A stretch of DNA of 64,000 bases from a plasmid. Positions within the stretch are counted from its first letter, which is position 1. Every line of letters starts with the position of its first letter. The notes beneath the pieces were generated by a model that worked only from the letters and a program-made list of their open reading frames with translations, was not told where the DNA came from and did no database searches. The position numbers and the translations under genes are program-made. Positions 3,616 to 28,098 of this stretch are shown piece after piece. The stretch lies in sequence record NZ_CP014527.1. One strand, 5' to 3'.

Positions 3616-4626
3616 ATGGCAAACCTAGTATCGGCCTTAGGCCAAACCAAGGCAAATCATGATGCTACAAATGACACTCTGTACGGCGTAGGCGGAGACG
3701 GAGATGACAGGCTCGAGGGAGGTAGGGGAAATGACTTCCTGTATGGTGGTGCAGGAGACGACGCCCTGCACGGCGGAGACGGAGACGACCGTCTGTCCGG
3801 CGGATATGGAGACGACACCCTGAATGGTGGGGAGGGAGATGACAAGCTCGAGGGAGGTGAGGGGAATGATACCCTCTATGGAGGGTTTGGCAGTGATGTC
3901 TTGGATGGCGGTAGGGGAAATGATCACCTGTATGGTGGCGCAGGAGACGACACCCTGTACGGCGGAGACGGAGACGACATCCTGAATGGTGGGGAGGGAG
4001 ATGACAGGCTCGAGGGAGGTAGGGGAAATGACTTCCTGTATGGTGGTGCAGGAGACGACGCCCTGCACGGCGGAGACGGAGACGACCGCCTGTACGGCGG
4101 AGACGGAGACGACCGCCTGCACGGTGGAGGCGGAGACGACATCCTGAATGGTGGGGAGGGAGATGACAGGCTCGAGGGAGGCGAGGGGAATGATATCCTC
4201 TATGGAGGGTTTGACAATGATGTCCTGGATGGCGGTAGGGGGAATGACTTCCTGTATGGTGGCGCAGGAGACGACACCCTGTACGGCGGAGACGGAGATG
4301 ACATCCTGTATAGCGGGTCCGGTAATGATACCTTGTATGGTGGGGCAGGTGCCGACCAATTTATCTACACGTCGACATCATTGGGCAGCGATGTTGTACT
4401 GGATTTCAATGCTGCAGAAGGAGATCGTATCCGTCTTGATATTGAAACCTCATCTGGCACGCGTCTGACATGGAGCGACAGTGGGCCGCAAAAACTGTCA
4501 ATGTGGGCCGAGCCATCTGATGGAGGTATGGTTCTGCGCGCTGATATTGACTGCAATACTGATGCAGATATCAGTATCAACCTGCAAGGCGTTTCTGATC
4601 TGGGGCCAGATGCCTTGATTCTCTAA
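3616..4626 (+). CDS. RTX (repeats-in-toxin) calcium-binding protein, hemolysin-type GGxGxDxUx nonapeptide repeats
   Basis: ~35 tandem 'GGxGNDxLxGGxGDD' nonapeptides. ~300-bp internal duplication at DNA level (3715 vs 4015). Non-repeat C-terminal ~90 aa consistent with a type I secretion signal. Confidence 0.85.
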
Positions 4627-5323: not shown

Positions 5324-5580
5324 ATACCCAGCTGGGCAAACAGATCATCCGCATCGTTGGCATGGTGAACATCTTCACCATGCTCACTTTTCGCCAGCGT
5401 TTCCGCCGTCAGTGCGTTAGGAACGCGCATGTCGAATGGCAGCGTCTTTTCTTTGGCGATTTTGGTGAGGGCAATGCGCACTACATCGGACACAGTAAGC
5501 CCCATACCCGCCAGTACGGCAGCGGCTTCGTTTTTTAGCGTCTCGTCGATCCGGGCGCGGACAAATGCATTTGCTTTCAT
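5320..5580 (-). CDS. dinJ: Type II antitoxin DinJ (RelB/DinJ family)
   Basis: From internal Met: 'MKANAFVRARIDETLKNEAAAVLAGMGLTVSDVVRIALTKIAKEKTLPFDMRVPN...DADDLFAQLGI', collinear with E. coli DinJ. Confidence 0.85.
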   Translation of the reverse strand: MKANAFVRARIDETLKNEAAAVLAGMGLTVSDVVRIALTKIAKEKTLPFDMRVPNALTAETLAKSEHGEDVHHANDADDLFAQLGI

Positions 5581-5804
5581 GGGACGCCTTGGTTCCATTG
5601 GGAGCCTCGCATTCAGGGTGAGATAACACTGTAGCTCAAATGAACCACTTTTGCAAGGCACCTCTTTTTAACCATCTCTTTCTTTTTTTCAGCCACTTGA
5701 CGCACAGCTTTCAGCATATATACGAAAGAACAACGTCCTTGACGTTCAGATTATTTTAACTGATATAAGATGTCATCTTAATATTAAAAAAGGATCTGAA
5801 TGAG

Positions 5805-6446
5805 ATGATAATAACGGTTGGTAATACAAAAGGTGGCGTGGGCAAAACTACGATATCGGTTAATTTGGCGGTCGCCCGCGCATTGTCCGGTCGCGATGTA
5901 TGGTTGATTGATGGTGACCGACAGGGTACGGCGCAAACTGCAATCAGTATCCGGGCTGAAGCGGGGTACGCTCCGGGGATTGCTTGTGCCACTTATCCGG
6001 ATGGCCCGACATTGCGGTCACAGGTTCAGCAACAGGCATCCAGATTTAATGATGTGATTATCGATGCTGGCGGACGTGACTCAACTGCATTGCGTGCTGC
6101 CCTTGTACTGTCTGATGTGCTTCTGGTTCCATTCCAGCCTCGGAGTTATGACGTGTGGGCACTCAACGATATTGCGGCACTGGTTGATGAGGCCAGAAGT
6201 GTGCGTGATGGTCTGCGGTGCTTTGCCGTTCTTAATTGCGCCGATCCGGGCGAGCATTCAACAGACAACATAGAAGCTGCCGCTGCGGTCGCTGAAGTTC
6301 CCCAATTTGAATACCTCCCAACTCCTTTGCGTCGTCGCAAAGCTTTTGCTAATGCCGCAGGTTCGGGGCAAAGCGTTCTTGAATTGAGGCCGCAGGATCA
6401 CAAGGCGACAGCCGAGGTAAATAACCTTATTAACGCATTGTTTTAA
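5805..6446 (+). CDS. parA: Plasmid partition ATPase ParA (Walker-type, type Ib)
   Basis: Deviant Walker A 'GNTKGGVGKTTISVNLA'. 213 aa, typical of small ParA/ParF-like proteins. Confidence 0.85.
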   Translation: MIITVGNTKGGVGKTTISVNLAVARALSGRDVWLIDGDRQGTAQTAISIRAEAGYAPGIACATYPDGPTLRSQVQQQASRFNDVIIDAGGRDSTALRAALVLSDVLLVPFQPRSYDVWALNDIAALVDEARSVRDGLRCFAVLNCADPGEHSTDNIEAAAAVAEVPQFEYLPTPLRRRKAFANAAGSGQSVLELRPQDHKATAEVNNLINALF

Positions 6447-6485
6447 TATTAAAAAGATATCTAAATAGAGTTGTAAGGGGTTTAA

Positions 6486-6752
6486 ATGGCTATTACGAAG
6501 AAACCAGTCAAGCCTGTTGCAGGTTCATCCTTTGCCCCTGTCGATGCCTTTATCTCAGGTGCTCCGGATGCTGATCAGGGGCCGCGTCGTGTCCGCAAGG
6601 GACGCAAGGTCCAGATTACACTAACAATCACAGAACCCTTGTTGGCTCGCGTGGATGAGCTGGCCGGACATCTTGGGCAAAGCAGGGCCGCTGTGATTAA
6701 TCTGGCTGTTATGCAGATGCTTCAAACAGGCTTGCGTATTGATGGCGAATAA
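6486..6752 (+). CDS. ParG-like ribbon-helix-helix partition protein (centromere-binding partner of ParA)
   Basis: 88 aa, immediately downstream of parA. Disordered basic N-terminus followed by a CopG/RHH-like C-terminus 'VQITLTITEPLLARVDELAGHLGQSRAAVINLAV'. Confidence 0.5.
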   Translation: MAITKKPVKPVAGSSFAPVDAFISGAPDADQGPRRVRKGRKVQITLTITEPLLARVDELAGHLGQSRAAVINLAVMQMLQTGLRIDGE

Positions 6753-6869
6753 TCTGCCTTCGCGTGTTGCCTTGTCTTCCTTGAAGAAGCAGAAAAAAAT
6801 AACGTTTCTGCGCTGAATGCATTTCTGACGCCATGCCAATACCACCCGGCATGGCGTTCTGATTCAGAT

Positions 6870-8576
6870 TCAGACCGTTTTCTTTTTCTGTTTTGCCTTT
6901 GCCTTTGCCGGTTTTGGTATGTCTTTCAGCTCGACCGTGGCGGCCCTCGACCATGGCTCGGGGATCAGGTCCCATGGCATGATGGCGGTGTTGAGCTTCA
7001 GCAGTTCAGGCACGTTGATATCAGCCGTGCACCAGAGGCGGACCGGCTCGTCATCGGCATTGCGTTCCACATGAACAAGCAGCCGGTTGATACAGGTGCG
7101 CACAAGAACGGTGGACAGGCCGTCGGACGGATCGTGCTTCAGGCGGGCCAGAAGGCGTTTCCAGCGGTTCAGGCTTTCGTTGGCAAGGTCGGTGCGGAAA
7201 ATCAGCTTGTCCAGTTCCCGCTGGTGCGTATAGAGCTGAAGGCGTGCGTTGGTGATCTGCTTTTCCTTGTCGTCCAGAAAGGACCGGATGACGGGGCGGT
7301 TGGTCCGGTTTCCGAGATCGGACAGCAGTGCCTTGACCTCATCTGTTGCCTGGTCGATCTGTTGTTGCAGCCGTTCAATGGCGCTTTCGTGGCGTTGCCG
7401 GTCCGGTGAAAGCGTCTCCTGAAAGGTGCGGATGGTGTCCAGATCAACCGTATTCAGCGCCTCCAGACCTTGGACAATGATGGTTTCGCGCGGGATCATC
7501 CACAAGGCGGTCCGGCGTGATCCATAATAACCCGGCGGGGCGGCGGTCAACGGGTGGCCGGTTTCGGCGCACCGCAAGCGGCGCGTGAAGAACCAGCTTC
7601 CGGTCTGGCCGGTCTTCATCTGGAGCGAGCGGGCCTTGCGCTGGCGTTCCATCGCCCGTTCCCGGCTGCGGGCCTTGGCATCGGCGGCGCGGATATGACG
7701 CATGGAAGACCGGTCTTCAATCATGCGCTGGACCGCATCGAACAGGTCCTCGTCCACAATCGCGAGCTCCGGAACCGGTATCCGCAGCCATTCACTTTGA
7801 GGCCGCACAACACAGTTCCGTTTTCCGGTTTCGGGATTGACCCGGTATTCCTGCCGGTTCCAGGTGATCCAGCCTTTGTACAACGTATGGCGCAGGACGC
7901 CGGTTTGCCGGGACGCCGTTCCGACCAGAGCGGATATGGACCACGTTCCGCCACGCGGCGATGCAATGCCGTCGTCGTTCAGGCCTTCACAGATTTCACT
8001 CAAGATCGCGCCGTCATGGTACTCGCTGTAGATACGCCGGATGACCTCCGCCTCCCCCGGATGAATCTCGCGCTCGCCACGGACCAGTTCGCCTTTTTCA
8101 TCCAGGCGGTGTTTGGTGCGATAGCCATAGCACAAGCCGCCGGGGATCTTCCCGCGCAGCGTGATGGCCCGCAACCCGCGCCGGGTCTTGTCGGCAAGGT
8201 CCCGCAGGTACAGCGCGTTCATCGTGCCTTTCAGACCGATATGCAGCTCGTTGATGGTGCCGTCCGCGATGGTTTCAATATCGATCCCCATGAAGCGCAG
8301 TTTCTCGTACAGCGCGGCGATATCGGACTGGCTGCGGGACAGGCGTGACAAGTCCTCGCTCAACACTTTCTCGAATTCACCGGCCAGGGCGGCGGCAACC
8401 AGCGCCTTGGCATTCTCGCGGTGGGACATGGTGGCTCCTGACAACGCCTCGTCGGCGAAAATGTGGGATACCGTCCACCCCCGGTCTGCGCAAAACTGGA
8501 TACACCGGGCCACCTGATCGGCGCTGGATGTGTCCTGTTTGTCGGTGCTGTGGCGCGCGTAAATGGCGACCAGCAT
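6870..8576 (-). CDS. Large serine recombinase (resolvase catalytic domain + recombinase domain + C-terminal coiled-coil)
   Basis: 'MLVAIYARHSTDKQD' catalytic Ser motif. ~570 aa with a long C-terminal extension. Start taken at the internal Met of ORF 6870..8615. Confidence 0.8.
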   Translation of the reverse strand: MLVAIYARHSTDKQDTSSADQVARCIQFCADRGWTVSHIFADEALSGATMSHRENAKALVAAALAGEFEKVLSEDLSRLSRSQSDIAALYEKLRFMGIDIETIADGTINELHIGLKGTMNALYLRDLADKTRRGLRAITLRGKIPGGLCYGYRTKHRLDEKGELVRGEREIHPGEAEVIRRIYSEYHDGAILSEICEGLNDDGIASPRGGTWSISALVGTASRQTGVLRHTLYKGWITWNRQEYRVNPETGKRNCVVRPQSEWLRIPVPELAIVDEDLFDAVQRMIEDRSSMRHIRAADAKARSRERAMERQRKARSLQMKTGQTGSWFFTRRLRCAETGHPLTAAPPGYYGSRRTALWMIPRETIIVQGLEALNTVDLDTIRTFQETLSPDRQRHESAIERLQQQIDQATDEVKALLSDLGNRTNRPVIRSFLDDKEKQITNARLQLYTHQRELDKLIFRTDLANESLNRWKRLLARLKHDPSDGLSTVLVRTCINRLLVHVERNADDEPVRLWCTADINVPELLKLNTAIMPWDLIPEPWSRAATVELKDIPKPAKAKAKQKKKTV

Positions 8577-8655
8577 GACGTTTCCTCCGGTCTGTGTCGT
8601 ATGTATACACGACATTTAACCGGTTGACGGGCAACGGGGAAAGGGCGGATGACGA

Positions 8656-9059: not shown

Positions 9060-9366
9060 ACAACATCATGAAATGTCAATGCAGGTATGGAGAGTAAAAG
9101 CCATGTAAAGGGGAAATAGACGGTATGTATAACTGCGAACAGTGGTGCAAATGAAATTGGCAAGTATCTAAGTGGTATTCTACGAGTTTCTACGAGTTTC
9201 CAAAAGTTTCTACGAGTTTCTACGAGTTTCCAAAAGTTTCTACGTCGTACCCACCGGCAGGATAGAGGAGGTGGGCCCACCTCCTGTCCTCATTCCATGA
9301 GGATGCTTATTCGCACGGCCGGGCCGTGCTCAACGCAAGCGTGAGAAAGGGGGAATTTTTTAACCG
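9060..9366. repeat. ~300-bp noncoding repeat element, copy 2 (see 3190-3490)
   Basis: 11-bp periodic array 'gtttctacgag'/'gtttccaaaag' x7 (9171-9245). Perfect palindrome aggaggtgggcccacctcct (9266-9285). Ends exactly at the Tn3-family repeat at 9366. Confidence 0.7.
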
Positions 9367-9624: not shown

Positions 9625-10008
9625 ATGACGCGGGCACCCAAGTCAGAAACACACCAGCCTGATGCAAGTGCTGTTCTGACCAAAGCTGTGATCCGGGCGG
9701 CGGATTATCTGGATATTCCGGCAACCGTGCTGGCAAGAATTCTGGGGCTCAGCGAGCCCACCATATCCCGCATGCGCAAGGGATCCTTTTTTCTTTCAAC
9801 AAAAAAGAAAGAATCCGAGATCGGCGTACTGTTTGTGCGTCTTTTCCGGTCTCTGGACGCGCTGGTCGGAGGAGACCAGGCCAGTGCACGGGCGTGGTTG
9901 ACCAATGTGAATACGGTCCTGCTGGATCGTCCGCTCAACCAGATACAAACCATAAACGGACTGTACAATGTCATTGCATACTTGGACGCCCGCCGCGCTG
10001 TCATCTGA
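9625..10008 (+). CDS. Xre-like HTH antitoxin of RES-Xre (ParS/MbcA-like, DUF2384-type) toxin-antitoxin pair
   Basis: 127 aa. 'AVLTKAVIRAADYLDIPATVLARILGLSEPTISRMRKG' HTH. Upstream of and overlapping a RES-domain gene. Confidence 0.75.
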   Translation: MTRAPKSETHQPDASAVLTKAVIRAADYLDIPATVLARILGLSEPTISRMRKGSFFLSTKKKESEIGVLFVRLFRSLDALVGGDQASARAWLTNVNTVLLDRPLNQIQTINGLYNVIAYLDARRAVI

Positions 10009-10744
10009 GTTCCGGTCTTTTACGGGGTTGTGCTGGCGTCTGGTGGAGTGCCAGCACTACGTTTCGACGCTGAAAATAGTCGACAGCCTTGAAGAGCAGC
10101 GCATTCTGGAAATGTTGGTAGAAGAAACAAAGCCACCGCTGCCCCCGGAATGTCAAAGCCTGCATTTCCTTCTGTCCACGCCTTTCCGGTATGACCCGGC
10201 GTATCCAAAGGGTTCCCGGTTCCGGCGGGCCGGACGCACGCCGGGTGTCTATTACGCCGCCATGGAGCCTGAAACCGCCGTTGCCGAGATCGCTTTCTAC
10301 CGGGTCCTGTTTTTTGCGGAATCCCCGGGTACACCATGGCCGGTCAACCCGGCTGAATACACCGCCTTTGCGGTCGACGTGGAAAGCCGAAGCGTTGTTG
10401 ACCTGACATCCCTGCCGTTGTCACAGGGGCGGGCGGTCTGGACGGACCCGGTGAACTACGAACCGTGTCAGGCGCTGGCAGAAACGGCCAAGCAGGCGGG
10501 GGCCGGGATGATCCGGTATGAATCGGTGCGTGACCCGCGTGGCCGGCATAATCTCGCCCTTATGACCTGTCAGGCGTTCAGGGGCGGACAACCGGCACAT
10601 TGCCAGACATGGCGGATCCTGCTCAGTCACGTCGGGGCCCAAGCTCTGTGTGAGTTTCCACAGGTGTATTTAGCTTTTGATCGGGATGAATTCTCGTCAG
10701 ACCCGCGCCTGAACGGGATGGACTGGAAACGGCCTTCCCGGTAA
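9968..10744 (+). CDS. RES-domain toxin (ParT/MbcT-like NAD+-targeting toxin); true start probably downstream of 9968
   Basis: Downstream partner of the Xre antitoxin. Conserved Arg/Glu/Ser-containing segments (e.g. 'RFRRAGRTPGVYYAAMEPETAVAEIAFYRV', 'IRYESVRD'). The 41-nt overlap with the antitoxin suggests an internal GTG/TTG start near 10030-10046. Confidence 0.7.
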   Translation: MSLHTWTPAALSSEFRSFTGLCWRLVECQHYVSTLKIVDSLEEQRILEMLVEETKPPLPPECQSLHFLLSTPFRYDPAYPKGSRFRRAGRTPGVYYAAMEPETAVAEIAFYRVLFFAESPGTPWPVNPAEYTAFAVDVESRSVVDLTSLPLSQGRAVWTDPVNYEPCQALAETAKQAGAGMIRYESVRDPRGRHNLALMTCQAFRGGQPAHCQTWRILLSHVGAQALCEFPQVYLAFDRDEFSSDPRLNGMDWKRPSR

Positions 10745-11194
10745 ACCAAAGAGAAACCCTAGATTGTGTTGGTGACCTACCACCCACGGCCCTTTCCCAG
10801 CACTTTTCCCATCGCGTCAACCACATTCATGCCCATCGGCCCGGTTGCGGCCTGTCCGGTGAGGTAGAGCCGCCAGTTCCTGGCCTGTGACGGAAGAAGC
10901 TGGTTCTGGCGGATGGCAAGGTAGCGACGCCAGCGATGATCGGACAGGAGGCCGCGTCCGGCCAGCGGACGCAGGCGATAACGACGGACGGGCTGGCCCG
11001 TCCGGATCTTGTTCCTGGCGATATGGGCAGGATCACGGTAGGAACCAAGGCGTTTCTCCAGCGCACCACGGCTGCACGTACGGTCAAGCGCACTGGCTTT
11101 CATGTGGGGTGGCTTGCTGGTGTCGGAATCAAGCGGACGGAACACCAGGCCACGGCCGCGCTGGACAAGAACAACGCCGAACCGGTCTGCCAGC

Positions 11195-11263
11195 CTCTGG
11201 CGCAGCCGCGTCAAGATCGGCACTGGCAAGTTCAGGCCGCTACGACCACTGAAACCGTCTTAG
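11195..11263 (+). pseudogene. tnpA: Tn21-like tnpA 3'-terminal relic (last ~22 codons)
   Basis: Translates to 'LWRSRVKIGTGKFRPLRPLKPS*', matching the TnpA C-terminus pattern ...LWRSSAKIGAGKFRPLRPLQPA*. Stop codon lies inside IR-2. Confidence 0.5.
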
Positions 11264-11296
11264 CGTGCTTTATTTTCCCTTTTCTGAGACGACCCC
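11259..11296 (-). repeat. Tn21-subgroup (Tn3-family) 38-bp terminal inverted repeat, IR-2
   Basis: Reverse complement ggggtcgtctcagaaaagggaaaataaagcacgctaag has 37/38 identity to the Tn21 IR. Inverted relative to IR-1, so IR-1/IR-2 bracket 1.93 kb carrying the RES-Xre pair. Confidence 0.85.
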
Positions 11297-11297
11297 T

Positions 11298-11386
11298 ATC
11301 AACCTGACCGGAGATTACCTGTGGCGCAGCAGCGCCAAGATCGGCGCAGGCAAATTCAGGCCACTACGACCGCTACAGCCGGCTTA
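11298..11386 (+). pseudogene. tnpA: Tn21-like tnpA 3'-terminal relic (last 29 codons)
   Basis: Translates to 'INLTGDYLWRSSAKIGAGKFRPLRPLQPA*', the C-terminal peptide of Tn21-subgroup TnpA (recalled from memory). Begins immediately outside IR-2. Stop codon TAG inside IR-3. Confidence 0.8.
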
Positions 11387-11420
11387 GCGTACGATTTTTT
11401 CCGTTTTCTGAGACGACCCC
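11383..11420 (-). repeat. Tn21-subgroup (Tn3-family) 38-bp terminal inverted repeat, IR-3 (IRtnp-type end)
   Basis: Reverse complement ggggtcgtctcagaaaacggaaaaaatcgtacgctaag. Preceded by the tnpA 3' relic exactly as at a Tn21 IRtnp end. Confidence 0.8.
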
Positions 11421-11547
11421 AAGTTGTCGCATTGTTCCGTTTTGTGGTTAAAAAACAATGCTTGGCGGGATAAACACACGAAACCCCGCTTGCAATTTAT
11501 CGGCGATGCCTCATAATGCTGCAGATTGCATTATTTCAGGGGCTAGA

Positions 11548-11742
11548 ATGACCGCCAAACACCGTATAACCATCAACATGACTGAGGCGGAATATACCGC
11601 CCTTGCGGCTCTGGCTGAACGGTTTCAAGTTTCAATGGCATGGCTTGGCCGCCGTGCTTTGGGTGAGATGGTAGAAAAATACAAACACGCAGGGCAACTC
11701 ACCATGCCCTTTGACGCAACACCGCCAAAGGAAAAATCATGA
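11548..11742 (+). CDS. Ribbon-helix-helix (CopG/Arc-like) DNA-binding protein, candidate controller of the downstream R-M operon
   Basis: 'MTAKHRITINMTEAEYTALAALAERFQVSMAWLGRRALGEMV' shows a beta-strand-helix-helix pattern. Stop codon overlaps the methyltransferase ATG (ATGA). Confidence 0.55.
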   Translation: MTAKHRITINMTEAEYTALAALAERFQVSMAWLGRRALGEMVEKYKHAGQLTMPFDATPPKEKS

Positions 11743-13382
11743 GAGCCAGCGCACTTGCCCCCGTTGTTCACCCACAATCAACCCGCCGGATAAATCTGCC
11801 GCTCAAAAAACCTACGCTTGAAACACCAACGCAGCTGGCCGACCGCATCGGCCAAAACTACACCAACCAAAAAAACGCCGAACACCGCAAAAGCCACGGG
11901 CTTTATTTAACCCCGCCGCCAGTGGCTGCCTTTATGGCAGATATGATCTGCCCCCGTGATACGCTACGCCTGCTTGATCCCGCCGCCGGTGCTGGCATTT
12001 TACTTTGCGCGGCCATCGAGCGGCTGGCCGCCTGCCCCAACCCGCCGCGTTTGGTTGAGATTGTCGCTTATGAAATTGATCCACCGTTAGCGGCCATGCT
12101 GGCCGAGGTTCTCGACCATCTAACCGCTTGGGCCGCTGGCAAGGGCATGACGATCAAAACCACAATCCGCTGCACTGATTTTATTTTGGCCGAGGCCGCC
12201 GCCCTGCATCATCGCCCCGCTAATCGCTTCGATGCCGTCATTGCTAACCCGCCTTATTTTAAGATCAACAAAGATGACCCCCGCGCCGTTGCGGCTTGTG
12301 ATGTTGTGCATGGTCAGCCCAATATCTATGGCCTGTTCATGGCTGTTGCCGCCGCGATGCTGAGTCAAGGCGGCGATCTGGTATTTATCACCCCGCGTAG
12401 CTTTGCATCAGGCCCTTATTTTAAGCGATTCCGCGAACGGTTTTTTTCAATGGTGCGACCGCTTAGAACTCATGTTTTTGCTTCCCGCCGCGATGCCTTT
12501 AGCCGCGATGCAGTGCTGCAAGAAAATGTTATCCTACATGCAATCCGCGCCGATGGATGGACAACCAAGCCCAACGGCCTGCCCTTCACAATTTCCAGCA
12601 GCACCGGCATGGGCGATCTTGACCAAGCCACCGAATACCCAGCCGCCTTAGCCGATGTAATCGACCCTAAAAATTTGGCTGGTGCTTTCCGTTTACCCTC
12701 AGGCCCCGAAGATGAAGACATTTTGCGCCGTGTGGACAGTTGGACAGGCTCACTTCATGCTTATGGGTTGGATATTTCCACCGGCCCCGTGGTGCCATTC
12801 CGCGCCACAGAACATCTAGCCGAGCAAGCTAATGGCGTAACCGTTCCCTTGTTGTGGTTAAACCATGTCAAGGCGATGGAGATTCAATGGCCGACCGCTA
12901 GCCGTAAACCGCAATACATTAAAAACAAAACCAATTCCCAACGCCTGCTTGTGCCAAACAGCACTTACATTCTGTTGCGCCGATTCAGTGCCAAGGAAGA
13001 GCACCGCCGCATGACCGCAGCCCCCTTGCTGGCCGGTCAGATTCCAGCCGCCATGATCGGTATTGAAAACCATCTAAACTATATTCACCGACCAGGCGGC
13101 AACATCAGCGATGATGAAGCCTTTGGCTTGGCCGCTTTGCTCAACAGCGCATTGATGGATGGGTATTTTCGTTGCACCAACGGCAATACCCAAGTCAGTG
13201 CCACCGAATTACGCGCCATGCCTTTGCCGCCCTTAGCCGCTATCGCCCAGCTTGGCCGCCGCGTCAGAAAAAAACCCGACAACATGGCTTTAATTGATGA
13301 TTTGGTTGAGGCGTTGACGCACAACCCCGATCAAATCAAGGTTAAAACGACCGAAAAACAAAAAGGAGAAGCCTTTGCCTGA
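11739..13382 (+). CDS. N6-adenine DNA methyltransferase, gamma-class (M.PstI/M.BsuBI / Eco57I-type family)
   Basis: AdoMet motif I 'LLDPAAGAGILLCAAIERL' precedes motif IV 'VIANPPYFKINKDD' (NPPY). 547 aa, close to M.PstI/M.BsuBI (~500 aa). Followed by a BsuBI/PstI-family REase gene. Confidence 0.85.
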   Translation: MRASALAPVVHPQSTRRINLPLKKPTLETPTQLADRIGQNYTNQKNAEHRKSHGLYLTPPPVAAFMADMICPRDTLRLLDPAAGAGILLCAAIERLAACPNPPRLVEIVAYEIDPPLAAMLAEVLDHLTAWAAGKGMTIKTTIRCTDFILAEAAALHHRPANRFDAVIANPPYFKINKDDPRAVAACDVVHGQPNIYGLFMAVAAAMLSQGGDLVFITPRSFASGPYFKRFRERFFSMVRPLRTHVFASRRDAFSRDAVLQENVILHAIRADGWTTKPNGLPFTISSSTGMGDLDQATEYPAALADVIDPKNLAGAFRLPSGPEDEDILRRVDSWTGSLHAYGLDISTGPVVPFRATEHLAEQANGVTVPLLWLNHVKAMEIQWPTASRKPQYIKNKTNSQRLLVPNSTYILLRRFSAKEEHRRMTAAPLLAGQIPAAMIGIENHLNYIHRPGGNISDDEAFGLAALLNSALMDGYFRCTNGNTQVSATELRAMPLPPLAAIAQLGRRVRKKPDNMALIDDLVEALTHNPDQIKVKTTEKQKGEAFA

Positions 13383-14316
13383 TATTCACCAAGCCCAAGA
13401 TATTCTAAAAAGTCTTGGCCTACCAGCCGCACAGCAGAATGAAATTTCCGCGCTAACCTTGCTGGCTCTTGTCGGGCTAGGCCCAACTGATCCTTGGTCA
13501 GCGGCTACCCGCAGCCGCCGCAGCGTATCAAAAGACATCATGGCTTTTATCGCCGAGCGTTTCGGTAAACACTATGCGCCCAACACCCGTGAAACCGTGC
13601 GGCGGCAAGTGTTGCATCAATTCGTGCAAGCCCGTATCGCCGATTATAACCCGTTCGAGCAGGACTTGCCGACCAATAGCCCCCGCGCTCATTACGCCAT
13701 CACCGATGATGCGTTGAGCGCAATTAAAACCTATGGCACAAAAGCATGGGCCGATGCCGTGGCACAATTCATTGCTACACACGGTTCACTTTCCAACACC
13801 TATGCAAAACACCGATCCACCGGAAAGCTGGTTCCAATCACTTTGCCGGACGGCAGCACCATTGAACTATCGCCCGGCAAGCATAATGACGTACAGAAAG
13901 CCATTATCGAGCAATTCGCGCCGCGTTTTGCGCCTGATTCCAAGCTGCTTTATATCGGCGACACCGCTAAAAAGAATGTCATAATGGATGCCAAAACCTT
14001 GGCCGATTTTGGCCTTGGTGCCGATGACCACGATAAATTGCCGGATGTGGTATTACTCGACCAAAAGAAGAATTGGTTGTTTCTAATTGAAGCGGTAACA
14101 TCACATGGCCCTATGTCACCCAAGCGCGTATTCGAGCTTGAGGAACGGTTAAAGGGCAGCCAAGCTGGGCCAGTTTATGTTAGCGCATTCCCAGATATGG
14201 CCGAGTTTCGTAAACACATGAAAGATATTGCTTGGGAAAGCGAAGTCTGGATTGCTGAAACACCGGATCACATGATCCATTTCAATGGCGATAGGTTTTT
14301 AGGGCCGAGAAAATAG
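13375..14316 (+). CDS. Type II restriction endonuclease, BsuBI/PstI family
   Basis: 313 aa, the size and position expected for R.PstI/R.BsuBI. TTG start 4 nt after a strong SD 'aaaaggagaa'. Overlaps the MTase stop. Family call rests on synteny plus overall similarity recalled from memory, not a computed alignment. Confidence 0.7.
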   Translation: MPDIHQAQDILKSLGLPAAQQNEISALTLLALVGLGPTDPWSAATRSRRSVSKDIMAFIAERFGKHYAPNTRETVRRQVLHQFVQARIADYNPFEQDLPTNSPRAHYAITDDALSAIKTYGTKAWADAVAQFIATHGSLSNTYAKHRSTGKLVPITLPDGSTIELSPGKHNDVQKAIIEQFAPRFAPDSKLLYIGDTAKKNVIMDAKTLADFGLGADDHDKLPDVVLLDQKKNWLFLIEAVTSHGPMSPKRVFELEERLKGSQAGPVYVSAFPDMAEFRKHMKDIAWESEVWIAETPDHMIHFNGDRFLGPRK

Positions 14317-14349
14317 GCACCGACTATCAAAACGCGGAGAGGCTATATC

Positions 14350-15051
14350 ATGGCAAGATGTACAGCACCAGTATATGGCCACCGCACATCGAGCGGGGCA
14401 GCTGCCTGCCCCGCATGTAATGGACGCTATAGAAGCTATACCTCACACTCATATTCACCGCCGCCGCCTTACTTCACCACCACAACAGTGAGCAATTGGG
14501 GTGGCCGAAGCAGCGGAAGTAGTTCTGGCAGCAGCGGAAAGGTTCGCTGGTCTCGGCCAGGTTCGTCCGTGATGTACACGCCTGCCCAGATACGGACGCT
14601 CACGCCTGTCCGTGAAAACATCGAAAACAAAACGTCCGTTCTCGATCTTCGGGACGTTTTTCTTTGCCATGCGTGGGACGACAGGAAAGGGGCTGCCAAG
14701 GAACTGCATGATCTGCTCCAGTCGCTCGGGGTATCGGTCTGGTTCAGCGAGAAGGATGTAGCCCTCGGCACTTCGTTGCTCCGCGAAATCGACAAAGGAT
14801 TGGTGAAGTCCCGAGTCGGGATCGTACTAGTGACCCCAGCACTGTTGCGTCGCATTCAAGGAGAGGGAATCGCCGACAAAGAGCTTTCGGCACTACTAGC
14901 GCGTGACCTGCTTGTTCCTGTTGTGCATGAAACCACGTATGACGCCCTCCGAGAAGTTAGCCCACTGCTCGGTTCGCGAAGCGGCCTGAGCACCGCAGAA
15001 GAGCCGATGGCAGACATTGCGGCCAAGCTCGCTGAACTAGTCGCCCCCTAG
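14350..15051 (+). CDS. TIR-domain protein (bacterial Toll/interleukin-1 receptor-like, putative NADase effector) with N-terminal Cys-x2-Cys and Ser/Gly-rich linker
   Basis: TIR core 'DVFLCHAWDDRKGAAKELHDLLQSLGVSVWFSEKDVALGTSLLREIDKGLVKSRVGIVLVTPALL' with the conserved catalytic Glu context (WFSE). SD 'GGAGAGG' 7 nt upstream. Starts 33 bp after the REase stop. Confidence 0.8.
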   Translation: MARCTAPVYGHRTSSGAAACPACNGRYRSYTSHSYSPPPPYFTTTTVSNWGGRSSGSSSGSSGKVRWSRPGSSVMYTPAQIRTLTPVRENIENKTSVLDLRDVFLCHAWDDRKGAAKELHDLLQSLGVSVWFSEKDVALGTSLLREIDKGLVKSRVGIVLVTPALLRRIQGEGIADKELSALLARDLLVPVVHETTYDALREVSPLLGSRSGLSTAEEPMADIAAKLAELVAP

Positions 15052-15129
15052 ATTGAATGCCCCAACAGTATAATTAAACAAGACCCCCACGAGGCCACGG
15101 ATGCAAAATTCCAAACTTAGGATTCACGC

Positions 15130-15339
15130 ATGATTGTCGTTATGGACAAAGAAGGCACACTTCATATTGAAGACGAAAATGGTAATGCTATGGACGGTTG
15201 CCGCATTAGTGCCACGAGATTCGATGAAACTTATATTGATGGCCTTTATGGCCGAAAATATTTTCCGGCCACCATGTGGGCGACCGTGGTTCGCAAAGGT
15301 GGTAAATATCGTGAGGTAAAAGTTACGCAAAAGAAATAG
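15130..15339 (+). CDS. Small hypothetical protein (69 aa) in a locally AT-rich segment
   Basis: AGGA 8 nt upstream of ATG. Followed by a 9-bp-stem hairpin cctaaaaac-ccac-gtttttagg (15349-15370). ~42% GC vs ~59% around it. No known domain. Confidence 0.4.
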   Translation: MIVVMDKEGTLHIEDENGNAMDGCRISATRFDETYIDGLYGRKYFPATMWATVVRKGGKYREVKVTQKK

Positions 15340-15390
15340 CTATGACGTCCTAAAAACCCACGTTTTTAGGATATTGGCCACCCTGCCCCG

Positions 15391-15424
15391 CTGTGAGCTT
15401 GATCGCTAAATGGCTTTGAATTTT
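15391..15424 (+). repeat. 33-bp inverted repeat (partner copies at 16301-16333 and 20345-20377 in opposite orientation)
   Basis: gatcgctaaatggctttgaattttgattgctat is the exact reverse complement of atagcaatcaaaattcaaagccatttagcgatc found at 16301 and 20345. Confidence 0.75.
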
Positions 15425-15429
15425 GATTG

Positions 15430-16011
15430 CTATCTGGCGTGCTCGGTGCGTGTGAGGGTGCGGTACACGGTCGGCCTGGAGACGGAGAACAGCTCGGCCA
15501 GATCGCTGATGCTGTAGTCACCGGTATCGTACATCCGCCGCAACTCGCATTGCTGCCGTTCGGAGAGCTTGGGCTTCTTGCCGCGTAGTTTGCCCTTGGC
15601 GCGGGCTACCGCCATGCCCTCGCGGGTTCGTAGCCGGATGATGTCCGACTCAAACTCCGCAAAGGTAGCGAGGATATTGAAGAACATCTTCCCCATGGGG
15701 TCGGTCGGGTCATAGATGGACGCGCCCAAGGCCAGTCGTACCTTGCGCTCCGTCAAGGTGTCGGCGATCTCCCGTGCATCGAGGACCGAGCGTGCGAGGC
15801 GGTCGAGCTTCGTGATGACCAGCGTGTCACCCGCCCTCACGGCCGCAAGCGCCTGGTCGAGACCGGGCCGTGTGCGTGTGCGCCCGGTCAGCCCCTGATC
15901 CGTATAGATGCGATCCGGAGCAACACCGAGTTCGACGAGGGCATGACGCTGCGCAGCAAGGTCTTGCTTGTCAGTAGAGCAGCGCGCGTAACCAATCGTA
16001 ATATTCTTCAT
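15430..16011 (-). CDS. Small serine recombinase (resolvase/DNA-invertase family, Tn3 TnpR/Hin-like)
   Basis: 193 aa. 'IGYARCSTDKQDLAAQ' catalytic Ser motif. C-terminal HTH 'YSISDLAELFSVSRPTVYRTL'. Confidence 0.85.
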   Translation of the reverse strand: MKNITIGYARCSTDKQDLAAQRHALVELGVAPDRIYTDQGLTGRTRTRPGLDQALAAVRAGDTLVITKLDRLARSVLDAREIADTLTERKVRLALGASIYDPTDPMGKMFFNILATFAEFESDIIRLRTREGMAVARAKGKLRGKKPKLSERQQCELRRMYDTGDYSISDLAELFSVSRPTVYRTLTRTEHAR

Positions 16012-16377: not shown

Positions 16378-17421
16378 TTACGGCCGGCCCTGCTTCTCAT
16401 AGCGCCGCCGGCAGAAGGCGAGGAAGGCCGCATTCGGATCACGCAACGGCGGTCGGCCGGAGTCATCCCAGAACGACAGCCATTCGCTCTTCAGGTGATA
16501 CACATCCCAGCCAGGCGCGGCCAAGCGCGCATCGTGATACACATCGTCATCGAGCTGAGGAATGTCACGGGAGGACAGGGCTTCAATCGCCTTAATCGTC
16601 GCGCGGTTAGTGAACAGGATCATATCGCCGTCTTCCAGGCTCACTGTGTAATCCGGCAGATGGTTTGTCCGCGCCAAATCCTTCAGCAGATAGCGAAACT
16701 GCTTCAGCAAGCTCTTGGAGCCTGTTTTCTTGTGCAAAAGCTCGATGCTGATCGACCAGCTCGGCTGGCGACCGCAATGCTTGCGGGCGATCTCATAGAT
16801 GCGCCGTTCAAGCGGTTTGCGCAGCCGGAAATAATCCCGATGCAGCGTCAGGCATTCATTCTGATTGACCGCATTGAAGACCCAATCTGATAGGGTGATC
16901 TCACACCAGAGCAATCTACCATCGAGGCCGAATTTACGCGCGACCGAGGCGGAATCAATCAAGCCGAAGGCGCTGAATTGCTCTTCATCGCCTCGCTTGA
17001 TATTTGTGCGAATGCGCGTCCCATCGAGGCGATCAAGGGCTTCACACATCGCCTCATAATCCTTTCCGGACGTGCCGCGATTGGTGAACATCAGCAATTC
17101 GCGCGCGGTGATCCGCACCCGCTTGGAAATGGCTTCGCCCTTGTTCTTTTTCGCAATAAGCTGCGAAATGCAATAGATCAAAATATCCTTGTCATAGATG
17201 GTTGCCAGGCCTTTAACGCTTGGCACAATCTCGATCCAGTTGCCGTTATGCTCATAGCGCCTGACCGTGGTTTCAGGCTTCTTGGACAGAGAATAGAATG
17301 GGTGTTCCATCTGCGCGACCAAATCCTTCAGAACGGCGTCGGCAATATCGCAGATGAACAAGTCTCCTTGCGGATACCTGTCGGGAAGAAGGCTATCAAG
17401 ATTAGTGGTATCAGAGATCAT
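16378..17421 (-). CDS. repA: Plasmid replication initiator RepA (RPA-type 'replication initiator protein A' family)
   Basis: 347 aa. Start codon abuts an iteron array. Family assignment recalled from plasmids of alphaproteobacteria, not computed. Confidence 0.7.
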   Translation of the reverse strand: MISDTTNLDSLLPDRYPQGDLFICDIADAVLKDLVAQMEHPFYSLSKKPETTVRRYEHNGNWIEIVPSVKGLATIYDKDILIYCISQLIAKKNKGEAISKRVRITARELLMFTNRGTSGKDYEAMCEALDRLDGTRIRTNIKRGDEEQFSAFGLIDSASVARKFGLDGRLLWCEITLSDWVFNAVNQNECLTLHRDYFRLRKPLERRIYEIARKHCGRQPSWSISIELLHKKTGSKSLLKQFRYLLKDLARTNHLPDYTVSLEDGDMILFTNRATIKAIEALSSRDIPQLDDDVYHDARLAAPGWDVYHLKSEWLSFWDDSGRPPLRDPNAAFLAFCRRRYEKQGRP

Positions 17422-20492: not shown

Positions 20493-20669
20493 ATGCTGAT
20501 CGGCTATGCCCGCGTTTCGACGCGAGACCAGACCACAGAGCTACAGACAGAGGCGTTATTGGCAGCCGGCAAGCTTCTGGAGACTGGCACGCCCGCCCGC
20601 ACCGTCGCCGAGAGTCTGGGCGTGTCACCCGCTACACTGTACCGCTGGCTGCCTGCCCAGACGGATTAG
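20493..20669 (+). pseudogene. tnpR: Internally deleted resolvase (tnpR) remnant
   Basis: 'MLIGYARVSTRDQTTELQTEA' (catalytic N-terminus) joined directly to an HTH 'TVAESLGVSPATLYRWL'. Only 59 aa versus ~185 for an intact resolvase. Ends at Tn3-family IR-4. Confidence 0.55.
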
Positions 20670-20702
20670 CGTGTCTTATTTTCCGTTTTCTGAGACGACC
20701 TC
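20665..20702 (-). repeat. Tn21-subgroup (Tn3-family) terminal inverted repeat, IR-4 (outer GAGG instead of GGGG)
   Basis: Reverse complement gaggtcgtctcagaaaacggaaaataagacacgctaat has ~33/38 identity to the Tn21 IR. Same orientation as IR-2/IR-3. Confidence 0.7.
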
Positions 20703-22409: not shown

Positions 22410-22463
22410 CGGGCTTTAACAGTTCTCTTGAAATCTATCTAAATGTGTGTATATCTATTTGTT

Positions 22464-23087
22464 ATGGATAGATATGTTTCCGTTGGCCGTGCGGCGGCCC
22501 TTCTTGGTGTCTCGGTCAGCACGCTCCGTCGCTGGGAGCGGGAAGGCAAGCTTTTGCCGGAGCGGACGGCATCCGGCCACCGCCGTTATGCCCTGTCCCG
22601 GCTTCAATCCGGTCACGACGGCGAGGCAGCGGCGCAGAAGCGTACCATTGCCTATGCGCGTGTTTCCAGTCATGACCAGAAAGCGGACCTTGAACGCCAG
22701 AAAAAGATACTGGAACTATACTGTGCCCGGCAAGGCTGGACCCATGAGGTTATAGCCGACCTTGGGTCCGGAATGAATTACCGCAAGAAAGGTCTCAAAC
22801 GTCTTCTGGAAGATATCATGGCGGGCCGGGTCGGACGCCTTGTCCTGACGCACAAGGACCGTCTTCTCCGCTTTGGTGCCGAGCTTGTGTTTGCGCTTTG
22901 TGAGGCCAGACAGGTGGAGGTTGTGATCCTCAACCAGGGTGAGGACACCACCTTCGAGGAAGATCTGGCGAAAGATGTCCTTGAGATCATCACCGTGTTC
23001 AGCGCCCGTCTGTATGGGGCACGGTCCCGGAAGAACCAGAGACTTCTGGAGGCTGTTGCAGAGGCGGTCAAGGATTCCCCGGCATGA
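22464..23087 (+). CDS. tnpA: IS607-family transposase TnpA (MerR-HTH serine recombinase)
   Basis: Identical to 24..647. Confidence 0.85.
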   Translation: MDRYVSVGRAAALLGVSVSTLRRWEREGKLLPERTASGHRRYALSRLQSGHDGEAAAQKRTIAYARVSSHDQKADLERQKKILELYCARQGWTHEVIADLGSGMNYRKKGLKRLLEDIMAGRVGRLVLTHKDRLLRFGAELVFALCEARQVEVVILNQGEDTTFEEDLAKDVLEIITVFSARLYGARSRKNQRLLEAVAEAVKDSPA

Positions 23088-24286
23088 TAACAGCCCATCG
23101 TATCGCGCTTGATCCCAACAATGTGCAGGCCACATATCTGGCCCGCGCTGCCGGGACAGCCCGCTTTGCCTATAACTGGGCCCTGGCGGAGTGGGGGCGG
23201 CAGTATGCGGCATGGAAAGAGGACAACACCCTGCCAAAGCCCTCGCAGTACGCCCTGCGCAAGCAGCTCAATGCCGTCAAGCGGGAGCAGTTTCCGTGGA
23301 TGCTGGAGGTTACGAAGAATGCCCCCCAGATGGCCATCATCCAGCTTGGAGAGGCCTTCAGGAACTTCTTCGCGGGCCGTGCCCGTTATCCGAAGTTCCG
23401 CAAGAAAGGTGTACACGACCGCTTCACCCTGACCAACGACCAGTTCACTATCGACGGTTCACACATCCGCATCCCCCATCTGGGCCGGGTGCGGATGCGC
23501 GAGGCGTTGCGCTTTACCGGCAAGATCATGTCAGCCACCGTGTCCCGTGTGGCCGACCGCTGGTTTGTCAGTCTTGCCGTGGAGACACCCGAGGAGCCAT
23601 GCCTGCCCCACGCTGAAAACCAAGGTGCGGTGGGTGTGGATCTCGGTGTCTCCGCACTGGCAACGCTCTCGACCGGGGACAGCCTTCCGGGACCCAAACC
23701 GCACAAGGCCGCGCTGAACCGTCTGCGCCGTTTGTCCCGGAGCCTGTCCCGGAAACAGAAAGGCTCCTCCAACCGCCGCAAGGCCCGGCAGAAGCTGGCC
23801 CGTCTTCACGCCCGGATCAGCAACATCCGCACCGATGCCCTGCACAAGCTCACCACAGCACTGGTCCGCAGATTTCACCTCATCGGCATCGAAGACCTGA
23901 ATGTACGCGGCATGATGCGCAACCGGCATCTGGCCCGCGCCATTGCCGACATGAGCTTTCATGCTTTCAGGCGGCAACTGGAATACAAGATGGCACGGCG
24001 CGGGGGACGGGTTGTGGTTGCCGACAGGTGGTTTGCCAGCAGCAAGACCTGTTCGTGCTGTGGGCACAAACTCGAAAGCCTGCCTTTGGCAACACGGGCA
24101 TGGGTGTGTCCCGTGTGCCGTACGCAGCATGATCGTGACGTGAATGCCGCGATCAACCTGAGACATCTGGCGGTGAGCTCCACCGTGTCAGCCTGTGGAG
24201 AGGAAAGCTCTGGCTTGGGTCGCAAGACCAAAGCGAAACTGGCCTCAGGGAAGCAGGAAGCAAGCAGCAGGTTTACTCATATATGA
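23084..24286 (+). CDS. tnpB: TnpB (IS605/IS607 OrfB)
   Basis: Identical to 644..1846. Confidence 0.85.
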   Translation: MITAHRIALDPNNVQATYLARAAGTARFAYNWALAEWGRQYAAWKEDNTLPKPSQYALRKQLNAVKREQFPWMLEVTKNAPQMAIIQLGEAFRNFFAGRARYPKFRKKGVHDRFTLTNDQFTIDGSHIRIPHLGRVRMREALRFTGKIMSATVSRVADRWFVSLAVETPEEPCLPHAENQGAVGVDLGVSALATLSTGDSLPGPKPHKAALNRLRRLSRSLSRKQKGSSNRRKARQKLARLHARISNIRTDALHKLTTALVRRFHLIGIEDLNVRGMMRNRHLARAIADMSFHAFRRQLEYKMARRGGRVVVADRWFASSKTCSCCGHKLESLPLATRAWVCPVCRTQHDRDVNAAINLRHLAVSSTVSACGEESSGLGRKTKAKLASGKQEASSRFTHI

Positions 24287-27887: not shown

Positions 27888-28098
27888 AGAACGACACTCC
27901 GCACACCAACAGTTGGAAGGGCGTCTCCCCCTAGGAACGACGCAAAGACGAACGCAACACCTGCCCCCGCCCAACAAAAAAGCGCGGCGTTGTATAAATA
28001 GAAGGCCCAACAATACCGAAAATTGCAAGAGAAAATAGCATGCAGGCATCTTTTGATTGTTATCGTTGCATGCACCTAGGATTAATAGATGCAATCAT

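Follow-up and report, generated by a model that had tools for sequence, protein, structure and literature searches.

Does a gene for a TIR domain protein that directly follows a Type II restriction-modification (R-M) gene pair form one defense system with that pair, or have two independent modules come to lie side by side? A locus on a Haematospirillum jordaniae plasmid (sequence record NZ_CP014527.1) raises this question, and we analyzed a stretch of 64,000 nucleotides (nt) of that plasmid, which is referred to as the window; its TIR protein and its restriction endonuclease (REase) are 100% identical to H. jordaniae proteins. An earlier reading, made from the sequence only, described four co-oriented genes, i.e., for a small ribbon-helix-helix (RHH) protein, a DNA methyltransferase (MTase), the REase, and the TIR protein, as an R-M operon with an appended TIR effector gene, and proposed a two-layer system in which restriction is backed up by NAD+ depletion. 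Our comparative analyses make it reasonably probable that two independent mobile defense modules were joined on the plasmid and that the TIR protein acts alone as a second-line effector.

The R-M cassette and the TIR gene are separate units of homology

The four co-oriented genes are located where the sequence-only reading had placed them (Table 1), and the signatures of tight packing that it described were recovered in full. The stop codon of the small gene overlaps the MTase start codon as ATGA, the REase gene overlaps the MTase gene by 8 nt and is preceded by GGAG upstream of its TTG start codon, and the TIR gene begins after a gap of 33 bp containing the Shine-Dalgarno (SD) sequence GGAGAGG. 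The identities of the three larger proteins were also borne out. The MTase matches the Pfam families Eco57I (E value of 7e-13) and N6_Mtase (2e-8) as well as the PADLOC family MTase_II (6e-106), and its translation contains the NPPY motif as IANPPYF. The REase matches BsuBI_PstI_RE (PF06616; 5e-63), the N-terminal helix-turn-helix (HTH) domain BsuBI_PstI_RE_N (PF17728; 2e-45), and PADLOC REase_II (5e-113), and the NCBI annotation gives the identical product. The TIR protein matches Pfam TIR_2 above the cut-off. The RHH label of the small protein is less direct: the protein had no match in Pfam, NCBIfam, PADLOC, or the PDB, but with its family profile, hhalign gave a match (probability, 94.9%; E value of 4.6e-8) to a regulator annotated as CopG family, the gene of which likewise lies in front of N6 methylase genes, on a Neorhizobium plasmid. 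Based on this match and on a strand-helix-helix pattern in its sequence, it is presumed to be an RHH protein.

Using BLASTN with positions 11000 to 15600 against the R-M and TIR loci fetched for comparison, we found that the R-M cassettes align from 11507–11511 to 14314–14315, i.e., up to the REase stop codon, and that the 80 TIR loci align from 14349–14350 to ~15051, i.e., over the TIR open reading frame (ORF) only. Nothing further within this interval aligned to either set of loci. The 33-nt gap in which the two modules meet has no significant RNA structure (z of −1.1) and no terminator-like or promoter-like site. Because the gap is free of such signals, co-transcription is plausible, and transcription from the R-M promoter probably continues through the R-M genes into the TIR gene. 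In this respect, the idea of a joint operon fits the window; a conserved pairing of the TIR gene with the R-M genes did not hold up in related loci, as described next.

Table 1. Features of the window and genes found after the REase gene in related cassettes (the latter with locus names and positions within those loci)
Feature	Position	Strand	Remarks
ParA ATPase	5805-6446		Plasmid maintenance gene
Large serine recombinase	6870-8615	-	Near the R-M/TIR locus
Xre-like antitoxin and RES-domain toxin pair	9625-10744		3.6 kb upstream of the TIR gene
R-M cassette promoter	11490-11531	+	Promoter-like match; -35 TTGCAA, 11490-11495; -10 CATAAT, 11512-11517
CopG/RHH-like small protein, 64 amino acids (aa)	11548-11742	+	Presumed controller of the cassette
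N6-adenine DNA MTase, Eco57I/N6_Mtase type, 547 aa	11739-13382	+	Pfam, PADLOC
BsuBI/PstI-family Type II REase, 313 aa	13375-14316	+	TTG start; Pfam, PADLOC
Junction, 33 nt	14317-14349	+	SD GGAGAGG, 14336-14342
Stand-alone TIR protein, 233 aa	14350-15051	+	Pfam TIR_2, 4e-14, 53.5 bits versus cut-off of 28
AT-rich ORF, 69 aa	15130-15339	+	Orphan, doubtful gene
Hairpin, 11-bp stem	15347-15372		Separates the convergent resolvase gene from the + strand genes
Resolvase	15430-16011	-	Convergent to the + strand genes
Replication initiator, RPA family (RepA)	16378-17421	-	
After REase: GmrSD_N protein (PADLOC NsnA-like) and RelA_SpoT protein (PDC-S33)	L088/L089, 5955-8011; L094 (=L101), 5348-7415; L095, 2897-4928; L102, 4952-6989		4/15 cassettes
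After REase: window-type TIR			1/15 (the window itself)
After REase: SIR2_2 protein, 586 aa	L132, 4946-6706		1/15; starts 7 bp after the REase stop
After REase: RosmerTA (RmrT, 3e-57, and HTH-M78 protein)			1/15
After REase: PDC-S06 ATPase, 866 aa (1e-193)			1/15
After REase: weak ThsB_TIR-like protein, 129 aa, and 8xMP membrane protein	L092, 7015-7934		1/15
After REase: DUF6338			1/15
After REase: unknown proteins			2/15
After REase: nothing co-oriented			3/15

The 3′ end of the cassette is a recurrent docking site for unrelated defense genes

A metagenome scan for relatives of the REase gave six loci, and this set was extended by look-ups of the exact proteins, so that 15 distinct cassettes, including that of the window, with REase identities of 62% to 100% could be compared. 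The small gene, the MTase gene, and the REase gene recur as a unit, with identities to the window copies of 52% to 91%, 44% to 80%, and 62% to 90%, respectively, and the small gene, which encodes 64 to 75 aa, is kept before the MTase gene. The slot after the REase gene is occupied by at least nine different gene contents (Table 1). In 12 of the 15 cassettes, a co-oriented gene starts at most 141 bp after the REase stop codon, mostly within 12 bp or overlapping the stop. Because these 12 cassettes carry co-oriented, closely spaced, and differing genes after the REase gene, we conclude that the 3′ end of the cassette is a recurrent docking site for unrelated defense genes and that the TIR gene is one occupant among many. 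None of the 14 other cassettes has a TIR gene of the window type, and the exact arrangement of R-M and TIR genes was found only in H. jordaniae contigs.

Several of the other occupants are of interest in their own right. The commonest, a GmrSD_N (DUF262) protein together with a RelA_SpoT protein, is present in four cassettes with REase identities of 62% to 87% and looks like a recurrent two-gene candidate system. The SIR2_2 gene, whose cassette is located on a contig with phage head genes (HK97-gp10-like), encodes a further NADase-type effector that is docked on this type of R-M cassette. In locus L092, the 129-aa protein has a sub-threshold match to ThsB_TIR (E value of 7e-4, below the Pfam cut-off), and its gene is followed by the genes for the 8xMP octameric membrane protein and then a resolvase; the first two may represent a minimal pair of a TIR protein and a membrane effector.

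The TIR protein belongs to a widespread family without a conserved neighbor

The TIR protein has >8,000 database relatives, of which the best 120 show full-length identities of 70% to 100%. The family was found in at least 494 GTDB species representatives. With phyla assigned by record title or source name, they cover ~13 phyla, and the hosts include the Pseudomonadota, Myxococcota, Bacteroidota, Bacillota, Actinomycetota, Verrucomicrobiota, Planctomycetota, Acidobacteriota, Gemmatimonadota, Chloroflexota, Vampirovibrionales, Binatia, and Armatimonadota. The family is also present on 209 plasmids, where it stands alone on small as well as large replicons, including Klebsiella IncF plasmids (beside an ISNCY transposase gene), Acinetobacter plasmids of roughly 10 kb, and pNCcld, a 270-kb plasmid of Bacillus cereus; further large plasmids of the B. 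cereus group carry close matches. The protein at full length is absent from 50,697 GenBank phage records; 27 IMG/VR contigs carry members of the family close to integrase, terminase, and tape-measure genes, i.e., in a prophage-like context. We found no paper in the literature characterizing this family.

To describe the neighborhoods of the family, ORFs were called within 8 kb on each side of the TIR gene in 80 loci, and their products were clustered using BLASTP. Apart from the TIR protein itself, no cluster was present in more than six of the 80 loci, and homologs of the window MTase and REase were found in none of the 80. Among the products of the two nearest large ORFs per side (239 proteins, searched against Pfam and PADLOC), we identified defense proteins of many kinds, including XhoI and BglII endonucleases, Cas7f, BrxL, pAgo, a CBASS cyclase, Lamassu, Gabija, CapP/CapH, RmrA, SLATT, SIR2_2 (two proteins), and a small number of further TIR proteins. 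Transporters, amidases, and other housekeeping proteins were also among the neighbors; SIR2_2 and SLATT account for 2 and 2 to 3, respectively, of the ~240 proteins. The expectation that homologs of the TIR protein recur close to R-M or other defense genes therefore holds for defense genes in general but not for this R-M type. A co-oriented ORF of at least 150 aa that ends within 100 bp upstream of the TIR gene was detected in only 9 of 76 loci, and for this reason, we consider the TIR gene to be normally its own transcription unit and tight docking to be a minority arrangement.

An origin of the TIR ORF as an integron cassette was considered since homology is confined to the ORF, and was rejected, as no attC-like element was seen. 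The ORF-only homology is itself uninformative on this point because intergenic DNA would not align at 70% to 80% identity.

The TIR domain is under strong constraint

The TIR protein consists of a Cys/His knuckle (C4-H11-C20-C23), a Ser/Tyr/Gly-rich linker (residues ~27 to 65), a conserved segment (residues 66 to 100; PRWSxAGSxVxYTPAEVRTLTPVRENVEKR), and the TIR domain (residues ~100 to 231), so that the N-terminal cysteines and the Ser/Gly-rich linker noted in the sequence-only reading are indeed present. The four knuckle residues are invariant in the family (MARCTAPVxGHRTASGAAxCPAC). The linker contains [S/G]Y[S/G]-like repeats; its composition is kept across the family while its sequence varies, and it may mediate self-association. 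In a profile search against PDB sequences, residues 1 to 100 gave low-complexity noise and no relative. An AlphaFold2 model of the protein based on 41 close homologs had a mean pLDDT of 46.5 and was discarded as unusable.

The solved structures closest to the TIR domain are those of AaTir, PdTIR, AbTIR, BtTir, and TcpB (E values of ~1e-14). Glu178 aligns with the catalytic Glu of AaTir (NYELDGL) and is invariant in 41 family members, and the protein most likely hydrolyzes NAD+, as judged from this conservation. Manik et al. reported that formation of cyclic ADPR products requires the Trp position of the WxxxE motif (10.1101/2022.05.07.491051). Ile174 lies four positions before Glu178, and there is no aromatic residue at the position of AbTir W204, in an alignment that is locally ambiguous as it needs a 4-residue insertion; with this ambiguity, the missing aromatic residue is a hint of plain NAD+ hydrolysis.

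Purifying selection on the TIR domain is strong (median pN of 0.09 versus median pS of 0.69). In comparisons of the whole gene to the window copy, the median synonymous difference was 0.67, with saturation in 37 of 80 pairs, and the median nonsynonymous difference was 0.17 for the full length, 0.09 for the TIR domain, and 0.39 for the linker. The GC content of the gene ranges from 36% to 67% and tracks that of the host locus (r = 0.82). This substitution pattern and the tracking of GC content argue for long-standing purifying selection and not just recent spread. Because a sensor of variable phage proteins would not usually be conserved to this degree, we infer that the trigger of the TIR protein is itself highly conserved, i.e., a cellular state or a common molecule. 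Assembly-dependent activation has been reported for plant TIR-only proteins (PMC10972746), and in a bold and rather unlikely reading, the docked TIR protein would be a universal one-protein sensor in which the Ser/Tyr/Gly-rich linker could drive such activation.

The cassette promoter contains copies of a probable recognition site

In the window, the −35 and −10 elements of the cassette promoter are separated by a 16-nt spacer. A CTGCAG sequence (11519 to 11524) directly follows the −10 element, and a decayed second copy, TTGCAT, is located at 11526 to 11531. DNA homology to the other cassettes begins in the −10 region. In an alignment of six cassettes, the promoter element CATAATGCTGCAGnCTGCAG is conserved, and CATAAT-G-CTGCAG-N-CTGCAG is present upstream of the small genes in five related cassettes (L086, L087, L088, L090, and L092). 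Because copies of CTGCAG sit in the conserved cassette promoter, the cassette probably recognizes CTGCAG, i.e., has a PstI-like specificity. The window itself shows no avoidance of CTGCAG that would speak for this specificity (24 sites versus 23 expected). The position of the copies suggests that the promoter is controlled by the methylation state, by the RHH-like protein, or by both, and points to a possible autoregulation of the cassette via the site of its own enzyme.

The 69-aa ORF and the surroundings of the locus

The 69-aa ORF downstream of the TIR gene and the hairpin behind it exist as noted in the sequence-only reading, but the suggestion that this ORF encodes a partner or an antitoxin-like factor of the TIR protein was not upheld. 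The ORF has no matches in Pfam, PADLOC, or other families and is absent from every other TIR locus, and a search against 1.84 billion cluster representatives returned only the ORF itself and weak repeat matches. These are short stretches repeated within very long proteins, as many as 19 times in one of 1,658 aa, and instead of being a gene, the ORF may be what is left of a repeat protein; it also contains a terminator-like site at 15240 to 15254. The hairpin folds better than 200 of 200 shuffled sequences (z of −3.7) and is not a canonical intrinsic terminator because no U-tract follows it on the + strand.

The resolvase downstream of the hairpin was considered as a constant companion of the TIR gene and rejected as inconsistent: at 38% to 40% identity, it was found on only two other TIR plasmids and at one R-M locus. 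Upstream of the R-M cassette lies the Xre-RES pair. RES toxins are NAD+ degraders, and the plasmid thus carries two candidate NAD+-consuming modules, i.e., this pair and the TIR gene. Tandem 10-bp units, TTCTACGAGT and TTCCAAAAGT, occupy 9168 to 9257, in the interval from the large serine recombinase gene to the Xre-RES pair, and look like iterons or a partition site. A 103-nt direct repeat directly upstream of the R-M cassette (11194 to 11296 and 11318 to 11420; 83% identity and 124-nt spacing) has no Rfam match, and its 35-nt core (TTAGCGTGCTTTATTTTCC.TTTTCTGAGACGACC) is found again at 20666 to 20700; an Rfam scan of the whole window gave zero matches.

Two direct copies of an IS607-like element, with genes for a MerR-resolvase protein and an OrfB_IS605/TnpB protein, are located at 3 to 1846 and 22443 to 24286. 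They bracket ~20 kb that contain replication, partition, toxin-antitoxin, R-M, and TIR genes. The window also has cargo unrelated to the R-M/TIR locus, i.e., a gene for an RTX-repeat protein (3616 to 4626) and HlyD-type and ABC-type secretion genes (24703 to 28094). In a search for near-identical DNA in a plasmid collection, the sole match was a short TIR stretch in a Bradyrhizobium plasmid.

Discussion

In the reading that we favor, module 1 is a self-contained Type II R-M cassette with its own promoter, the small CopG/RHH-like protein, the MTase, and the REase, and module 2 is the TIR gene, a member of a widespread stand-alone family with no obligate partner that docked at the 3′ end of the cassette. 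Read-through from the R-M promoter would link the two in expression and inheritance. The conserved N-terminal part of the TIR protein would sense infection or a conserved cellular perturbation, after which the TIR domains would assemble, hydrolyze NAD+, and abort the infection. The comparative data contain no evidence for a mechanistic coupling of the TIR protein to the R-M system, and essentially the same TIR protein occurs in genomes without such an R-M system.

Several observations weigh against this reading. The PADLOC ThsB1 model PDLC00424 matches residues 1 to 232 of the 233 residues of the TIR protein (3e-114), and it follows from this match that some relatives do sit in Thoeris systems and that a signaling role is possible. 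As the TIR gene seems to be its own transcription unit at most other loci, an internal promoter in the 3′ end of the REase gene is also possible, and there is a weak promoter-like site at 13958 to 13985 within that gene. The low-confidence AlphaFold2 model gives the proposed sensor no structural support, the sample of 15 cassettes is small and consists largely of metagenomic contigs, and the NADase activity and anti-phage function of the family are putative.

Three other explanations were weighed against the joining of independent modules. In one of them, the TIR protein is a Thoeris sensor, orphan or acting in trans, i.e., a ThsB protein that would produce an ADPR-derived signal for an effector whose gene lies at another site of the genome. 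In addition to the ThsB match, the few relatives that adjoin SIR2_2, SLATT, or other TIR genes are consistent with this, as is the finding that one TIR cluster can pair with many effectors (10.64898/2025.12.03.692087). We consider it unlikely since no SIR2, SLOG, or Macro gene adjoins the window TIR gene, which instead has the REase, the 69-aa orphan ORF, the resolvase, and RepA as neighbors, since no ThsA model is among the PADLOC families listed (25/28) for 47 other ORFs of the window, and since the great majority of the 80 TIR loci lack a candidate effector. The missing aromatic residue at the AbTir W204 position points in the same direction, as a weak argument given the ambiguous alignment. 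Rather less credible is a function other than anti-phage defense, in which the protein would either manipulate a eukaryotic host as a Tcp-like factor or serve in competition between plasmids and other mobile elements, with its gene beside the R-M genes by chance. In its favor, H. jordaniae is a human blood isolate, the closest structures include those of TcpB/BtpA and PdTIR, proteins initially investigated as virulence factors, plasmids commonly carry the family, and the conservation of the family is unusually high for an immune sensor. The presence of the family in free-living soil, marine, and anaerobic bacteria across its phyla argues against such a function, as do the lack of a secretion signal or a linked secretion gene, the frequent defense systems among its neighbors, and its occurrence in accessory-gene positions of prophages.

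The third explanation is the dedicated two-layer system, in which the TIR protein is wired to the R-M pair and fires upon inhibition of restriction or loss of methylation in the manner of PrrC in EcoprrI. It accounts well for the tight spacing, the shared orientation, and the lack of a terminator in the gap; moreover, the shared promoter carries the probable recognition site, so that expression could respond to the methylation state, another NADase-type gene (SIR2_2) is present at the equivalent position in a related cassette, and PrrC provides a precedent. The pairing is, however, limited to one species, with none of the 80 TIR loci near this R-M type and none of the 14 other cassettes having this TIR gene, and a protein that occurs nearly identically amid wholly different neighbors cannot be adapted to this R-M system. 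We therefore regard a dedicated system as very improbable, and the loss of methylation as the trigger, as suggested in the sequence-only reading, has no comparative support.

The assumption in the sequence-only reading that an effector linked to R-M genes in this way had not been described overlooks two precedents. The 'guilt-by-embedding' survey of Payne et al. described co-oriented defense genes that lie within operons for Hma, BREX, DISARM, and Type I R-M systems, and PrrC, an anticodon nuclease encoded within the EcoprrI Type I R-M locus, is the classical backup case (10.1101/2024.01.29.577857). As in that survey, the accessory genes here are co-oriented and tightly packed, and the occupants vary between homologous operons and include GmrSD-like proteins as well as ABC-ATPase candidates (PDC-S06); the host here differs in being a compact Type II BsuBI/PstI cassette, and the gene follows the last gene instead of being nested. 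In a guard of the PrrC/EcoprrI type, the effector would be held inactive by the R-M proteins and freed upon their inhibition; our comparative data argue against such a specific dependence of the TIR protein. The cassette resembles PstI/BsuBI systems in the two BsuBI_PstI domains of its REase and in the N6-adenine MTase alongside, and differs from them in that all genes are co-oriented and led by the RHH-like small gene. R-M operons regulated by a controller (C) protein are led by a gene for a small DNA-binding regulator; the small protein of the cassette resembles a CopG/RHH regulator and is not the canonical HTH C protein.

With respect to the TIR protein, single-protein TIR systems that depend on the TIR active-site residues defend Escherichia coli (2024, PMC11350192). 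By description, these are likewise short TIR proteins without a partner gene, whereas the family studied here has a Zn-knuckle-like N terminus and a Ser/Tyr/Gly-rich linker. With AbTir, AaTir, BtTir, PdTIR, and TcpB (PDB 8g83, 7uwg, 7uxr, 3h16, and 4lqc), the protein shares the ELxxLxAR segment around the catalytic Glu; TIR proteins of the AbTir/Tcp type have an N-terminal coiled coil and WxxxE, while the window protein has the Cys/His knuckle, a low-complexity linker, and no Trp four residues before Glu178. Thoeris combines a TIR sensor, ThsB, with a ThsA-type effector; Yirmiya et al. predicted ~29 configurations, of which types I to XI have been named so far, and explicitly set aside stand-alone TIR proteins (10.64898/2025.12.03.692087). 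The full-length match to the PADLOC ThsB model is shared with Thoeris, but the window TIR gene has no adjacent effector gene and the family no conserved two-gene operon.

As an R-M plus TIR system, the locus matters little because it is a juxtaposition in one species of a kind known from other defense operons; it is a new example of the known pattern in which defense genes dock onto a multigene defense operon. The swappable accessory slot on a compact Type II R-M cassette extends guilt-by-embedding from Type I R-M, BREX, and Hma, and points to candidates for defense genes, i.e., those for two proteins of 187 and 394 aa, for DUF6338, and for the pair of GmrSD_N and RelA/SpoT. A bolder and rather unlikely possibility is that BsuBI/PstI-type cassettes serve as expression platforms for interchangeable suicide or backup effectors (TIR, SIR2, GmrSD with RelA/SpoT, RosmerTA, and ATPases), with read-through set by the methylation state and the RHH-like protein; if so, loss or dilution of methylation or entry into a naive host would alter the effector dose. 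The stand-alone family to which the TIR protein belongs is very large, is distributed over plasmids, prophages, and islands, and has an unusually constrained TIR domain.

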